DNA from: an uncultured Actinomycetes bacterium
Lineage (GTDB): Bacteria; Actinomycetota; Acidimicrobiia; IMCC26256; DASPTH01
Direction of reading: 5' to 3'
NCBI GenBank assembly: GCA_963720785.1
Contig: CAVRGQ010000009.1
Span: 695,813-759,812 of the forward strand
DNA: 64,000 nt
Shown here: positions 1 through 29,402 of the stretch, piece by piece
Numbering within the stretch: the first letter of the stretch is position 1
Layout: every line of letters begins with the position of its first letter
The notes under the pieces: model-generated
What the model saw: only the letters and a program-made list of their open reading frames with translations
What the model was told of the DNA's origin: nothing
Database searches by the model: none
Position numbers and translations under genes: made by a program

Positions 1-95
1 CCGTGACGGAACACGAAGTCGGCGATGGCGGCGACGATTCCCGGCCGGTCGGGGCACGACAGCAACAGAACGGCGGTGGGACCCAGGGTGTTCAT
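1..95 (-). CDS. purU: formyltetrahydrofolate deformylase, 5' fragment (gene continues past the left edge)
   Basis: Minus-strand translation from the ATG at 95 gives MNTLGPTAVLLLSCPDRPGIVAAIADFVFRHG. This matches the conserved ACT-domain N-terminus of PurU (LLLxCxDRPGI[IV]AAV). Only 31 codons are visible. Confidence 0.6.
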   Translation of the reverse strand, partial: MNTLGPTAVLLLSCPDRPGIVAAIADFVFRH

Positions 96-175
96 CGGCT
101 GGTGTTCATCGGCTGGTGTTCATCGGCTGGTGTTCATCGGCTGGTGTTCATCGGCTGGTGTGCACCCGATCGGCT
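87..175 (-). repeat. 14-bp tandem repeat (minus strand AGCCGATGAACACC): 5 perfect copies at 87-156 plus one degenerate copy at 157-175
   Basis: Read directly: GGTGTTCATCGGCT lies head-to-tail at 87-100, 101-114, 115-128, 129-142 and 143-156. The array fills most of the spacer between the SDR stop (184) and the purU ATG (95). That ATG is inside the last unit. Confidence 0.95.
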
Positions 176-183
176 TCGCCGCG

Positions 184-981
184 TCAGCCGGAGCGCTTGA
201 TGACCAGGCCGGCCACCTTGCGGGAGACGCCGGCCGGAGCTGCGCTGGAGAACGCGGCCGCGGTCTTGTTCATCGCGCCGGGGATGGACACCGAACGCCG
301 ACGGTCGAGGTCGCGCAACGCGTTGCGCACGACGTCGTCGGACGACTGCCACAGGAACTCCGGGATCTGCGTGGTGCCGAGCCCGGCGCGGTCGTGGAAC
401 TCGGTGTGGGTGTACCCGGGGCACACGGCCATCACGTGCACACCCTTCGGGCGCGCCTCCTCGTGCACCGCGTGCGTGAAGCTGTTCACGAACGCCTTGG
501 TCGCGCTGTACACCGCGCTCTCGGGCGACGGCTGGTACGCCGCGAGCGACGACACGTTCACGATGGCGCCGCTCCCCCGCGACTCCATCGCTGCGAGCCC
601 CGCGTGTGTGAGGCGCACCAGTGCCGACACGTTGAGCTGCACCTCGCGCAGCTCCTGCTGCACGTCGAGGTCGGCGAAGTGGCCGAAGGTGCCGAAGCCC
701 GCGTTGTTCACGAGCAGGTCGACGGGGCGCTCGGCGGCGCCGATGCGCGCGGCGACGGACTCGAGCTGCGCGGCGTCGAGCAGATCGGCCGGCAGCACCT
801 CGACGTCGACGCCCGATCGGGCCTGCAGATCGGCGGCGAGCGCCTCGAGCCGTGCCGCGTCACGCGCCACGAGCACGAGATCGGTGCCGCGCGCCGCGAG
901 CTGTTCGCTGAAGGTGCGGCCGATCCCCGCCGACGCGCCGGTGACCAGCGCGCGGGTGACCTTCGAGGCGGGTGCGCTCAT
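184..981 (-). CDS. SDR family oxidoreductase
   Basis: 265-aa ORF with the TGASAGIG cofactor motif and YSATK active-site motif. Its ATG (981) overlaps the thrC stop (978-980) as ATGA. Confidence 0.9.
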
Positions 982-2051
982 GCGGGCATCTCCAGTGCGG
1001 CGGCGACCTCGTCGGCGTTCGCGTCGACCGCGTCGCCGACGTTGACCTCGGCGATGGCGCGGTTGGGGTCCTTGAGCCCGTGGCCGGTGACGGTGCAGAC
1101 CACGACGTCGTCGGCGGCGAGCAGGCCGTCGGCGGCGGCGCGGAACAGGCCGGCCACCGATGCCGCCGACGCGGGTTCGACGAAGCAGCCCTCCTCACCG
1201 GCGAGGAACCGGTAGGCCTCGATGATCTGCGCGTCGGTGACCTCGCCGATGTGCCCGCCCGACTCGTCACGCGCGTTCACCGCGCCCTGCCAGGAGGCCG
1301 GGTTGCCGATCTGGATCGCAGTGGCGAGCGTCTCGGGGTGCAGCACCGGCTCGCCGCGCACGATGGGTGCGGCACCCGCGGCCTGCCAGCCGAGCATCCG
1401 GGGCCGGCGCGACGAGTGCCCCAGCTCCGCGTACTCGCAGTAGCCCTTCCAGTACGCGGTGATGTTTCCCGCGTTGCCGACCGGGATCGAGTGCACCGTG
1501 GGCGCGTCGCCGAGCACGTCGACGATCTCGAACGAAGCGGTCTTCTGTCCCTCGATGCGCGACGGGTTCACCGAGTTCACGACCTCGACCCCGGAGCGCT
1601 CGCCGAGCGTGCGCACGATGTCGAGGGCCTGGTCGAAGTTGCCGCGCACCGGCACCACTCGAGCGCCGTGGATGAGCGCCTGCGCGAGCTTGCCCAGCGC
1701 GATCTGTCCCTCGGGGATCACCACGCCGCACACCAGACCGGCGCGAGTCGCGTAGGCGGCGGCCGAGGCAGAGGTGTTGCCGGTTGACGCGCAGATCACG
1801 ACCTTGGCGCCGCGCTCCACCGCGTGCGACATGGCCATCGTCATGCCGCGGTCCTTGAACGAGCCGGTGGGGTTGAGCCCCTCGACCTTCAGCAGCACAC
1901 GCGCGACACCGACGCGCTGCGCGACCCGCGGTGCGTCGAGGAGCGGGGTGTTGCCCTCCAGCAGCGTGACCACGGGCGTGGCGTCGGTGACCGGGAGGTG
2001 CTCCCGGTACTCCTCGATCAGCCCCCGCCAGCCGTTCGCACCCCTCGCCAC
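978..2051 (-). CDS. thrC: threonine synthase
   Basis: 357-aa ORF with a GTG start. It carries the PLP-lysine motif [13 protein letters not shown] and the ASTGNTSAS and [13 protein letters not shown] motifs. It lies downstream of hom. Confidence 0.95.
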
Positions 2052-2053
2052 TG

Positions 2054-3352
2054 TCAGTCCTCTCCGACAACCCGCAGGACCGAGCCCACGCGGTGCACTT
2101 CGTCGATGTTCTCCAGCGCCGCGACCGTCGCGCGCAGGTCGGATTCCCTGGCGGTGTGCGTGACCAAGATCAGGCGCGCCTCGTCGCCGACGTCGCGCTG
2201 CTGCATCGAGCGGATCGACACCCGGTGCTCGCCGAACTTGGTGGCGATCGCCGCGAGCACACCGGGCTGATCGGCGACCTCGAGCTCCAGGTAGTACTGC
2301 GACTCGATGTCGTCGACGGCCCGGATCGGCCGGTCGACGAGCGTGCCGATGGTGGCGCCCTTGCGGCCCTCCGCCACGTTCTTCGCCGCGTCGACGAGAT
2401 CGCCGAGCACGGCCGACGCGGTGGGGCCACCGCCGGCACCGCGCCCGTAGAGCATCAACTCGCCGACCGCCTCGCCCTCGATGAACACCGCGTTGAAGGA
2501 GTCCCGCACCGCCGCCAGCGGGTGCCGCACCGGCACCATCGCCGGATGCACGCGCACCGCCACCTCGCCGCCCGACTCCTCGGCGACCGCGAGCAGTTTC
2601 ACCACGTAGCCGAGGTCGGCGGCGGACTCGATGTCGGCCGCGGTGATCCCGGTGATGCCCTCGCGGTACACGTCGGACGCGACGACCTGGGCGCCGAACG
2701 CGATCGAGGCGATGATCGCCACCTTCGCCGCGGCGTCGAAGCCCTCCACGTCGGCCGTGGGGTCGGCCTCCGCGAAGCCGAGCCGCTGCGCCTCACCCAG
2801 CGCGTCGGCGAACGACGCACCTTCGTCGGTCATCTTCGTGAGGATGTAGTTCGTGGTGCCGTTCACGATGCCGGTGACGCGCTTGATGCGGTCGCCGGCG
2901 AGCGACTCGCGCAGTGGGCGGATCAGCGGGATGCCCCCGCCGACCGAGGCCTCGAAGAGGATGTCGACGCCCGCGCGCTGCGCGGCCTCGAACACCTCGC
3001 GACCGTGCGTGGCGACCAGTTCCTTGTTCGCGGTCACGACGGGCTTGCCCGCGGCGAGCGCGTCGGCGATGAGCGTGCGGGCGGGCTCGATGCCGCCCAT
3101 GACCTCCACCACGATGTCGACGTCGGGGTCGTGCACGACGGCGGCCGCGTCGGCGGTGAAGGCATCGGCCGGCAGCGGCAGGCCGCGGTCACGCTCGAGA
3201 TCGCGCACCACCACCTTGGCGACCTCGATGCGCACGCCCGCCCGTTCCTGCAGCACGTCGGCGTTGTCGTGGATCAACTGCACCAGGGCGGCCCCGACGT
3301 TGCCGCACCCGAGGATCCCGACCCGTACCCGCTCGTCCCGCGCTGGATCCAT
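2054..3352 (-). CDS. hom: homoserine dehydrogenase
   Basis: ORF 2054..4018 trimmed to the ATG at 3352: [26 protein letters not shown]..., with TANKELVA and [12 protein letters not shown]. The upstream 222 codons of the ORF are Arg/Pro-rich out-of-frame overlap with lysA. Confidence 0.9.
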
Positions 3353-3356
3353 CGCG

Positions 3357-4730
3357 TCAGTCTCCCTCATGGCGGTCGCCCGGCTCGTCACGGGCGACCA
3401 GGTCGTCGTAGGTCTCGCGCCGCACCACCACGCGCGCCCGCCCCTCGTGGACGAACACGACCGCCGGGCGCGGCATCTGGTTGTAGGTGGACGCCATCGA
3501 GTGGCCGTAGGCGCCGGTGACCGGGGTGGCGAGCACGTCGCCCAACTGCACGCCGGCGGGGAGCCGGGCGTCGGTGACGAGGAGGTCGCCCTGCTCGCAG
3601 TGGCGACCCGCGACCGTGGCCACGAACGGACGCTCCTCGGCGGCCCGCGCGGGCAGGAACGCCTCGTACTCGGCGGAGTAGAGCGCGGGGCGGGGGTTGT
3701 CACCCATGCCGCCGTCGACGGCGACGTAGGTGTGGAGATGTCCGCCTTCCCCGCCGAGCCCGCCGGCCAGGCGGATCTCCTTGATCGTGCCCACGGTGTA
3801 GAGGGTGAGCCCCGAGGGCGCGGCGATGGAGCGGCCCGCCTCCACGCACAGCCGCGGCGCGGGGTCGAGCCCCGCCGATGCGCACGCGTGGGCGAAGCCG
3901 TCGCGCAGCGCGGCGCCGAACTCGGCGATCGACGGCGCGTCGAGGTCGTCGGCGGTGTAGGGGACGGCGAGGCCACCACCCAGGTTGAGCTCCTCCACCA
4001 GGTGGCCGGTCGCGTCACGCACCTCGGCCGCGAGCCGGGTGACCACCTCCGCCGCGAGCACGTACGACTCGAGGGCGAAGATCTGCGACCCGATGTGGCA
4101 GTGGAACCCGGCGAGGTGCATCGCGCCGCTCTTCACCACGTGCAGCGCGGCCTCGCGCGCCGCGCCGGACGACACGGTGAGCCCGAACTTGGAGTCGTCG
4201 GCACCGGTGGCGATGTACTCGTGCGTGTGCGCCTCCACGCCGGGAGTGACGCGCAGCAGCACGGTGGGCGGCGGGCAGCCGTCGGCAACGAGTCGCTCGA
4301 TGCGGGCGAGCTCGTCGAAGGAGTCGACGACGACGTGGCCGAACCCCTCCGTGAGCGCGGTGCGCAACTCGGCGTCGGACTTGTTGTTGCCGTGCATCGC
4401 CATGCGCGCCGAGGGGAAGCCCGCGCGGCGCGCCACGAAGGCCTCGCCGCCACTCGCGACCTCGAGCTGCAGCCCCTCCTGCGCCACGAGGCGCGCCATC
4501 GCGGTGCACAGGAACGCCTTGCTCGCGTACGACACGTTGTCGCCGCCGAACGCGTCGGCGTACTCACGGCACCGGGCCCGCAGCTCGCCTTCGTCGTACA
4601 CGTAGAGCGGGGTGCCGAACACGTCGGCGAGCTCCTCGACGTCGCACCCGCCCATGAGCAGCCGGCCGGCGTCGTCGAGTCGCGCCGAGCGCGGCAGCAG
4701 GCCGAGGTCGATCGGCGCGGCGCCGGACAT
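3357..4730 (-). CDS. lysA: diaminopimelate decarboxylase
   Basis: 457-aa ORF with GTPLYVYDE, YASKAF (PLP lysine) and GGGLAVPY motifs. It sits between argS and hom as in other actinobacteria. Confidence 0.95.
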   Translation of the reverse strand: MSGAAPIDLGLLPRSARLDDAGRLLMGGCDVEELADVFGTPLYVYDEGELRARCREYADAFGGDNVSYASKAFLCTAMARLVAQEGLQLEVASGGEAFVARRAGFPSARMAMHGNNKSDAELRTALTEGFGHVVVDSFDELARIERLVADGCPPPTVLLRVTPGVEAHTHEYIATGADDSKFGLTVSSGAAREAALHVVKSGAMHLAGFHCHIGSQIFALESYVLAAEVVTRLAAEVRDATGHLVEELNLGGGLAVPYTADDLDAPSIAEFGAALRDGFAHACASAGLDPAPRLCVEAGRSIAAPSGLTLYTVGTIKEIRLAGGLGGEGGHLHTYVAVDGGMGDNPRPALYSAEYEAFLPARAAEERPFVATVAGRHCEQGDLLVTDARLPAGVQLGDVLATPVTGAYGHSMASTYNQMPRPAVVFVHEGRARVVVRRETYDDLVARDEPGDRHEGD

Positions 4731-29282: not shown

Positions 29283-29335
29283 CCTGATCGTACGGCCCTG
29301 ATCGTACGGCCCGCGTCGACCCGGCCCGCGTTGAC
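29283..29335. repeat. short direct repeats in the TetR/SBP-2 divergent region: CCTGATCGTACGGC x2 (29283-29310), then GGCCCGCGT[C/T]GAC x2 (29308-29320, 29323-29335)
   Basis: Read directly. On the minus strand each 14-bp unit contains TACGAT (a TAnnnT -10-like hexamer). The proximal one ends 6 nt before the GTG at 29280. Confidence 0.8.
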
Positions 29336-29402
29336 ACGGCCTGGTTCCTCGGGTGAGAATGGTCCTCTACTCATAGGGAAACATGCATCTGTACCGATCG
29401 GT
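29331..29402 (+). promoter_or_regulatory. candidate SBP-2 promoter (-35 TTGACA 29331-29336, 18-nt spacer, -10 GAGAAT 29355-29360) with a downstream palindrome ACCGATCGGT (29393-29402)
   Basis: Consensus -35 and a TAnnnT-like -10 were read directly. A 10-bp perfect palindrome lies in the predicted 5' UTR, about 28 nt before the ATG at 29430. The RBS is GGAGGGG. Confidence 0.45.

Follow-up and report, generated by a model that had tools for sequence, protein, structure and literature searches.

The purU locus and its operon

The window, by which we mean the whole 64-kb stretch of DNA that was analysed, has a G+C content of 71%, and a scan of species-representative genomes finds its nearest named relative in an Acidimicrobiia MAG, whose SDR protein is 88% identical to that of the window; the source is accordingly taken to be an uncultured, Acidimicrobiia-like actinobacterium. 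Its left end carries four genes on the minus strand, in the order hom, thrC, SDR, purU. The same order is seen in the orthologous contigs, where the corresponding Pfam domains are Homoserine_dh, PALP, adh_short and, for PurU, ACT plus Formyl_trans_N. Between the last two genes lies a short tandem repeat, the subject of this analysis. The features, in the direction in which they are read, are as follows.

2054..3352, minus strand: hom (homoserine dehydrogenase); start approximate, ATG 3352 with GGGAG upstream, alternatively 3370
978..2051, minus strand: thrC (threonine synthase; PALP domain in orthologues); its stop overlaps the SDR start
184..981, minus strand: gene for an SDR-family oxidoreductase, 265 aa; stop TGA 186..184
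157..175, minus strand: probable decayed older unit, the 19-mer AGCCGATCGGGTGCACACC, which is the unit with a CGGGT insertion and one substitution
148..165, minus strand: mini-ORF 0, GTG CAC ACC AGC CGA TGA, (M)HTSR*; its TGA overlaps ATG151
87..156, minus strand: five perfect 14-nt units AGCCGATGAACACC, with ATGA in each (Tandem Repeats Finder and exact-string search)
134..151, minus strand: mini-ORF 1, MNTSR*; its stop overlaps ATG137 as ATGA
120..137, minus strand: mini-ORF 2, MNTSR*; its stop overlaps ATG123
106..123, minus strand: mini-ORF 3, MNTSR*; its stop overlaps ATG109
92..109, minus strand: mini-ORF 4, MNTSR*; its stop overlaps the purU start ATG95
1..95, minus strand: 5' end of purU (formyltetrahydrofolate deformylase, N-terminal ACT domain); starts at ATG 95..93

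The hom stop lies only 2 nt before the thrC GTG (window 2049-2056), and the thrC stop and the SDR start overlap as ATGA (981..978). A scan of window positions 1-4200 with a sigma-70-type consensus found no sigma-70-like promoter, nor were intrinsic-terminator-like sites found there, which is consistent with a single hom-thrC-SDR-purU operon. The SDR stop lies 18 nt before GTG165, 32 nt before ATG151 and 88 nt before the purU ATG.

From ATG95 purU reads MNTLGPTAVLLLSCPDRPGIVAAIADFVFRH and continues past the left end of the window. The N-terminus of the window's PurU is colinear with those of 12 relatives, whose full genes encode 287 aa with ACT and Formyl_trans_N domains, and the start lies 1-5 residues ahead of the conserved GPTAVLLLSCPD.

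Anatomy of the repeat array

The array is the top tandem repeat of the window in Tandem Repeats Finder (87-161, period 14, 5.4 copies, 100% matches), with a score of 150 as against 74 for the second-best. An exact-string search of the DNA as assembled places the minus-strand copies of AGCCGATGAACACC at 156..143, 142..129, 128..115, 114..101 and 100..87, and finds no further exact copy within the 64-kb window outside this five-unit array. When up to two mismatches are allowed, 7 matches are found in the window against 0.44 expected, a number that none of 100 shuffles reaches; two of the 7 are unrelated two-mismatch hits outside the array, close to chance.

The ATGs of the array, all on the minus strand, lie at 151, 137, 123, 109 and 95, the last being the start of purU. 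Mini-ORFs 1-4 each read ATG AAC ACC AGC CGA TGA, with TG common to the stop and the next ATG. An earlier note on this DNA had described the five perfect 14-bp units, the duplicated starts, the ATGA-linked MNTSR* mini-ORFs and the supply of the purU start by the last unit; all of these were found as claimed, the exact coordinates and Tandem Repeats Finder agreeing on the units. The four MNTSR* links that it counted are likewise there, but the count itself needs to be raised: the GTG at 165..163, inside the 19-mer, opens an extra 5-codon ORF that stands in the same ATGA relation to ATG151, so that the chain has five upstream links, not four, and five ATGA junctions (151..148, 137..134, 123..120, 109..106 and 95..92).

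A second perfect 14-nt tandem repeat, CCTGATCGTACGGC x2.1, is present at window 29283-29341, and a 15-nt repeat (ACGGCCCGCGTCGAC x2.4) overlaps its end. That region is covered by several overlapping ORFs, and the repeat itself is free of ATG and GTG on the strand read.

Copy number at the orthologous junction

For comparison, 36 complete orthologous SDR-purU junctions were collected from other assemblies, together with two cut by contig ends; they came from the species-representative genome scan, from exact-protein look-ups of the closest SDR relatives and from a metagenome pattern scan. The window's own SDR and ThrC proteins have no exact match in the assembly collection. A neighbour-joining tree of the SDR proteins nests the window among relatives with a single unit, places a clade with 2-6 units as sister to these, and leaves the repeat-free lineages outside.

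In these outgroups (SDR 67-88% identical) the repeat is absent from the SDR-purU junction. The two genes are joined by a GTGA overlap in L003, L004 and L006 (possibly also in L005), or are separated by spacers of +5 nt (L126-L135), +7 (L009), +10 (L001) or +15 with a GGGAG motif (L010). An overlap or a spacer of 5-15 nt throughout the outgroups indicates that the ancestral SDR-purU junction was tightly coupled.

In the clade to which the window itself belongs (SDR 92-96% identical), 26 contigs, drawn from many independent samples, each have a 32-nt spacer made up of the 19-mer and one unit, the 19-mer being kept in 26/26 of these single-unit relatives. In five of them, L144-L148, AGCCGATCGGGTGCACACC is followed by AGCCGATGAACACC, so that the junction is letter for letter that of the window collapsed to one unit; judged by this identity, theirs is the pre-expansion allele of the window. 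The window alone is expanded in this clade, all 26 other contigs having one unit.

The sister clade (SDR 88-90% identical) is without the 19-mer. Its SDR stop reads TGAACACC, and this is followed by units of the form CGCCGATGAACACC or CTCCGATGAACACC, of which there are two in L114, L117, L118 and L122, three in L083, L119 (the same contig as L099), L120, L121 and L123, and six in L116. Nine sister-clade contigs encode an identical SDR protein despite having 2, 3 or 6 units, and the flanks are ~99.9-100% identical (0-2 mismatches per ~1,900 nt). L116, with six units, and L117, with two, have 0/1400 mismatches upstream and 1/511 downstream; L118 (two units) and L119 (three units) have 0/1400 and 0/553. 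Such near-identical flanks around differing unit counts mean that array length changes far faster than point substitutions accumulate. In two further sister-clade contigs, L124 (1408-1473) and L125 (~995-1026), the contig ends inside the array, as would be expected of a sample in which several copy-number alleles occur together.

Unit number thus differs among the SDR-purU spacers of relatives (1, 2, 3, 6), where the earlier note had asked whether it might be invariant. Every allele (1, 2, 3, 5 or 6 units) precedes an intact, in-frame purU start, which bears out its expectation that a change in copy number would leave the gene whole. Its description of a hypervariable VNTR is supported for this junction by the sister clade, with 2, 3 and 6 units in near-identical flanks; in the window's clade the 26 other contigs all have one unit. 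The assembled alleles demonstrate hypermutability only for arrays that already have at least two copies, and only in the sister clade, the single-unit allele being stable in 26 contigs. The locus has what defines a VNTR, namely head-to-tail copies of a unit whose number differs between close relatives at the orthologous position.

It is very unlikely that either the five-copy count or the entire repeat is an artefact of assembly or sequencing, absent from the organism. Repeat arrays are indeed error-prone in assemblies, as the contigs L124 and L125 with their breaks inside the array illustrate, but typical reads and assembly k-mers are longer than the 70 nt of this one, whose copies are perfect. 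Independent JGI and ENA assemblies, moreover, have 2, 3 and 6 units at the orthologous junction, and five contigs carry the exact single-unit precursor. From these comparisons the junction repeat is real, changes fast and leaves purU intact.

Three relatives depart from this pattern in other ways. In L082, a 92%-identical relative, the purU start is a normal single-unit one (2299-2570), and the gene is called 270 nt downstream, without the ACT domain; an indel near 'GCGCTTGGCGCCGCTCG', either an assembly error or a real frameshift, is the likely cause. In L007 (~3774-3830) and L002 (~3765), both ~70% relatives, the SDR gene has no purU after it. L007 retains just the first ~12 codons of a purU-like start (GTGACGGCCTCGAGCGGCACCAACGCGGTGCTGCTC) before unrelated sequence begins, which suggests a rearrangement breakpoint just inside purU.

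Origin of the repeat

The reading that we favour, and consider probable, is that the feature is a VNTR made by slippage, which copies the stop-start junction between SDR and purU, is tolerated because of its geometry, and would act as a relay for reinitiating ribosomes. Replication slippage would have duplicated the whole junction. In the sister clade the seed may have been the 8-nt direct repeat formed, 14 nt apart, by the SDR stop TGAACACC and the purU start ATGAACACC; in the window's clade it may have been the ACACC...ACACC that flanks the surviving unit on both sides. Once two perfect copies existed, the length of the array would shift quickly.

The 19-mer aligns to the unit and, small indels apart, to the first unit of a two-unit sister array, and is therefore probably an older duplicate whose ATG has been destroyed. 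The five copies of the window would then be a second, recent expansion of the unit that had remained intact, and expansion at this junction appears, from the alleles compared, to have happened at least twice. Recombination with a sister array, or inheritance of one, was considered as the source of the window's array and is less likely, since the window's unit (AGCCG...) is that of L144-L148 and unlike the CGCCG... or CTCCG... units of the sister clade.

The chain of mini-ORFs follows from the unit itself. Since ATGA is part of the unit and the period is 14 nt (3n+2), each extra ATG opens five codons that end in a TGA sharing TG with the next ATG. The ATGA chain is thus a matter of arithmetic, given the sequence and length of the unit, and is not evidence of design. 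Extra copies would be tolerated for this reason, and because the last unit always rebuilds the native start and N-terminus of purU.

Proposed translation across the array

The unit ATGs, including the purU start, have no Shine-Dalgarno complementarity, whereas SD-like sequences precede thrC and SDR: the predicted duplex with the anti-SD is +0.3 kcal/mol at the unit ATGs, -8.2 at thrC and -6.4 at SDR, against a background mean of -4.3. All five ATGs have an identical context from -14 to +9. The RNA of the array is predicted to be less structured than shuffled versions (z = +1.17 for the window, +3.43 for L116). The GGGTG within the 19-mer was considered as an SD for ATG151 (duplex -6.1 kcal/mol) and rejected, being 11 nt away from the ATG and complementary to the wrong end of the anti-SD.

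Another reading is that the units are iterated binding sites for a regulator, or form a structured RNA such as a riboswitch or attenuator that controls purU. Arrays of direct repeats can be iterated operator sites, and riboswitch control is frequent for purine and one-carbon genes. The idea is nevertheless extremely improbable here. An Rfam search of window positions 1-1200 at a permissive threshold returned only sub-threshold noise from microRNA families on the antisense strand, the best of it scoring 23 bits where the gathering score is 76, and a riboswitch or sRNA was rejected accordingly. An internal promoter or attenuator was likewise rejected, as far as a sigma-70-type consensus can tell, the scan of 1-4200 having been empty of promoter- and terminator-like sites. 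Rfam, folding and the terminator scan together thus gave nothing of the kind that marks a leader-peptide attenuator or riboswitch, the array RNA being less structured than its shuffles. The outgroup junctions of 0-15 nt leave no room for such an element, and the unit is found nowhere else in the 64-kb window.

The reading that we favour instead has ribosomes pass along the chain. The commonest spacing of translationally coupled genes is the -4 of NTGA, coupling falls 3-10-fold by about +40 nt, and ribosomes can reach a downstream gene by way of short ORFs (PMC12548453). Each link of the array, a stop overlapping the start of the next co-oriented ORF, has this NTGA form, at the level of sequence. 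From this literature, together with the SD-less ATGs and the unstructured RNA of the array, we infer a relay by termination and reinitiation. But for the chain, the 88-nt gap would break the coupling between SDR and purU; with it, ribosomes that finish SDR would be passed from ORF to ORF down to purU, and their number would be topped up by SD-independent loading on the open RNA.

In its simplest form this may be modelled as F_k = d + r*F_(k-1), where d is the de novo flux per AUG and r the fraction received from the preceding ORF. Output would then tend to d/(1-r), with the largest effect coming from the first few copies, and added copies would progressively uncouple the output of purU from the translation of SDR. 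Entry into the chain by reinitiation may be inefficient, given that GTG165 comes 18 nt and ATG151 32 nt after the SDR stop, and independent SD-less initiation at each AUG could dominate over the relay.

The array might also be an inert spacer, in which the upstream AUGs are ignored, purU is initiated at ATG95 only and the repeat is without translational consequence. Bacterial initiation needs no scanning, and the array sits between the SDR stop and an intact purU start, all of which such a reading would accommodate. We nonetheless regard it as improbable: the identical context of the ATGs from -14 to +9 means that nothing local marks out ATG95, there is no SD at any of them, and a gap of 88 nt is expected to weaken the coupling to SDR (PMC12548453).

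Comparison with known systems

Slipped-strand mispairing near the 5' end of a gene, giving heritable and reversible variation, is what the array has in common with phase-variable loci. In lic1 of Haemophilus influenzae, a (CAAT)n repeat is combined with alternative ATGs, and repeat number interacts with several start codons; the T-tract of Helicobacter sabA is a 'rheostat' in a promoter tract. Those repeats shift the reading frame or the promoter spacing and so leave the gene on, off or weak, whereas purU is never inactivated by copy number, and its 14-nt unit contains its own start together with the stop of the next unit. All alleles have an intact, in-frame purU and no promoter-like site was found; since no allele disrupts purU, this is not an on/off contingency locus.

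The links of the chain resemble NTGA coupling and the 'delivery' uORFs in having canonical -4 ATGA junctions and a short, non-functional ORF that hands the ribosome on (PMC12548453, which cites the coupling and delivery-uORF studies of Huber et al. 2019/2023 and Shell et al. 2015). The thrC-SDR junction of the same operon is also an ATGA. The known cases are single junctions or single uORFs, however, while here up to five (window) or six (L116) identical 5-codon ORFs follow one another in a head-to-tail chain, and their number is polymorphic.

The earlier note knew of no precedent for an array of duplicated start codons, and this was too strong, given the MIRUs (PMC12548453) and VNTR3239 (PMC2734929), both already described in Actinobacteria. 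MIRUs, such as those of the senX3-regX3 intergenic region, are tandem units with an ORF coupled at -4 to the start of the gene (PMC12548453, citing Supply 1997). According to that account they too occur between co-oriented operon genes at a start codon, in tandem and with variable copy number, and each unit has a small ORF coupled at -4 (NTGA), so that expansion would have little effect on the downstream gene. The position in the operon and the -4 overlap are found at purU as well, except that the upstream end is not overlapped, the SDR stop being 18 nt before GTG165. The MIRU unit is, however, 40-100 bp long (PMC2734929), as opposed to 14 nt here, and MIRUs are portrayed as dispersed and apparently mobile, with dozens of loci per genome, and as foreign to the gene that they precede. 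The purU unit copies the start context of its own gene, apparently arose locally by slippage, and is not dispersed in the 64-kb window that was searched. For these reasons (a 14-nt unit, self-derived from the gene start, not dispersed in the window) classification of the array as a MIRU was rejected.

In M. tuberculosis, the repeat VNTR3239 (ETR-F) lies between rnc and fpg1 and stops at the start codon of fpg1; its length is reported to correlate with the level of mRNA (PMC2734929). As at purU, copy number there differs between strains while the gene is conserved. Its units, of 55 and 79 bp, are compound, and the effect was measured on mRNA; duplicated start codons and chained mini-ORFs do not figure in what that report says of the locus (PMC2734929). 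Set beside these systems, the purU array would best be described as a micro-scale, self-derived operon VNTR that carries start codons.

Similar arrays elsewhere

The metagenome scan used a pattern of two adjacent units, by which both ATGA and the 14-nt period were imposed. Beyond purU it yielded 17 contigs, representing 13 distinct unrelated loci (within L097-L115), in which 2-7 tandem 14-nt units of the type ..CCGATGA(G/A)CACC form chained 5-codon ORFs (for example L102 4938-4995, L109 984-1027, L111 2008-2107 and L103 1665-1706). The last ATG at 14-nt spacing opens an ORF of 183-754 aa in 11/13 of them; of the other two, L106 is a contig that ends just after the array, and in L109 the array goes on with irregularly spaced units. 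Pfam domains were found near the N-terminus in 9/10 of the ORFs tested from these non-purU arrays, and comprise FlgD, LUD, TetR, PIG-L, PBP dimer, acyltransferase, homocysteine S-methyltransferase, ABC/MacB and HD.

Since the pattern forces ATGA and the period, the 13 loci are not unbiased evidence that this geometry is preferred; they are informative only through their position at gene starts and their high copy numbers. The same picture would arise if purifying selection removed 14-nt duplications from the interior of genes. The number of matches expected without tandem duplication is, by a rough estimate, well under one; 14-nt duplications are common, however (two perfect ones occur in the window alone), so that about a dozen hits are not clearly an excess. 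In 805 kb of DNA scanned for perfect tandem repeats (period 7-30 nt, 2.8 copies or more), no start-codon arrays came up beyond those already known from the pattern search, in a sample too small and too biased for the question of period modulo 3. A scan of viral contigs with a variable gap (N{0,9}) gave two hits, both in the same non-repeat N-terminal coding sequence.

A wider claim can be put forward only tentatively, and we think it unlikely to be correct: that repeats of the start-codon junction make up a general class of element under selection in high-G+C bacteria. An NTGA chain of 3n+2 units would then serve as a heritable, reversible dial on a ribosome relay, progressively uncoupling an SD-less gene from its upstream neighbour, and selection would favour this geometry over other periods.

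Some of the contigs call for separate comment. L101 and L103, which have the same PIG-L gene in two samples, differ at the upstream edge of the array, GAGG in L101 and GATG in L103; this single-base change makes or removes an extra ATG and so alters the number of mini-ORFs with the length of the repeat unchanged. At its contig end (10236-10304) L099, from an organism with a three-unit purU array, has a 12-nt repeat x5.8 which, read in frame, is predicted to encode an (ADVP)n peptide and is unrelated to start codons.

Does copy number tune PurU?

An adaptive reading of the locus would make it a translational rheostat, in which a selected copy number tunes PurU to the demand for one-carbon units and purines, much as in a contingency locus. 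PurU is a housekeeping enzyme with allosteric regulation through its ACT domain, which argues against this reading. There are points on the adaptive side: copy number ranges over 2-6 in near-identical backgrounds, at least two expansions have apparently occurred at the same junction, and thirteen other metagenome loci have 2-7 such units. None of the 10 complete sister-clade arrays is a single-copy allele, which could be a hint of selection for at least two copies rather than neutrality. There is also the M. tuberculosis operon VNTR which, as reported, ends at a start codon and tracks the level of mRNA (PMC2734929). Against these stand the automatic origin of the ATGA chain from the sequence and length of the unit, the invariance of the 26 single-unit relatives, and the bias of a sample of other loci drawn by a search that had ATGA and the 14-nt period built in. 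On balance we consider adaptive tuning of PurU by copy number unlikely.

Significance

Whatever its effect on PurU, the junction offers a natural allelic series, with 1, 2, 3, 5 and 6 units of ATGA-chained 5-codon ORFs in otherwise near-identical genomes. Such a series is well suited to measuring the efficiency of termination-reinitiation per junction, and to testing scanning by 30S subunits against scanning by 70S ribosomes in SD-poor, high-G+C bacteria. As to annotation, a gene caller may choose any of several identical ATGs at arrays of this kind, and assemblies break at them.

The locus is a case in which a tightly coupled operon junction can absorb slippage mutations while the downstream gene is kept, and it provides a very short, self-derived counterpart to operon repeats of the MIRU type. 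Should copy number indeed tune PurU, a core one-carbon/purine enzyme would be under slipped-strand control in a lineage that is environmental and non-pathogenic, outside the host-pathogen setting in which contingency loci are usually found.
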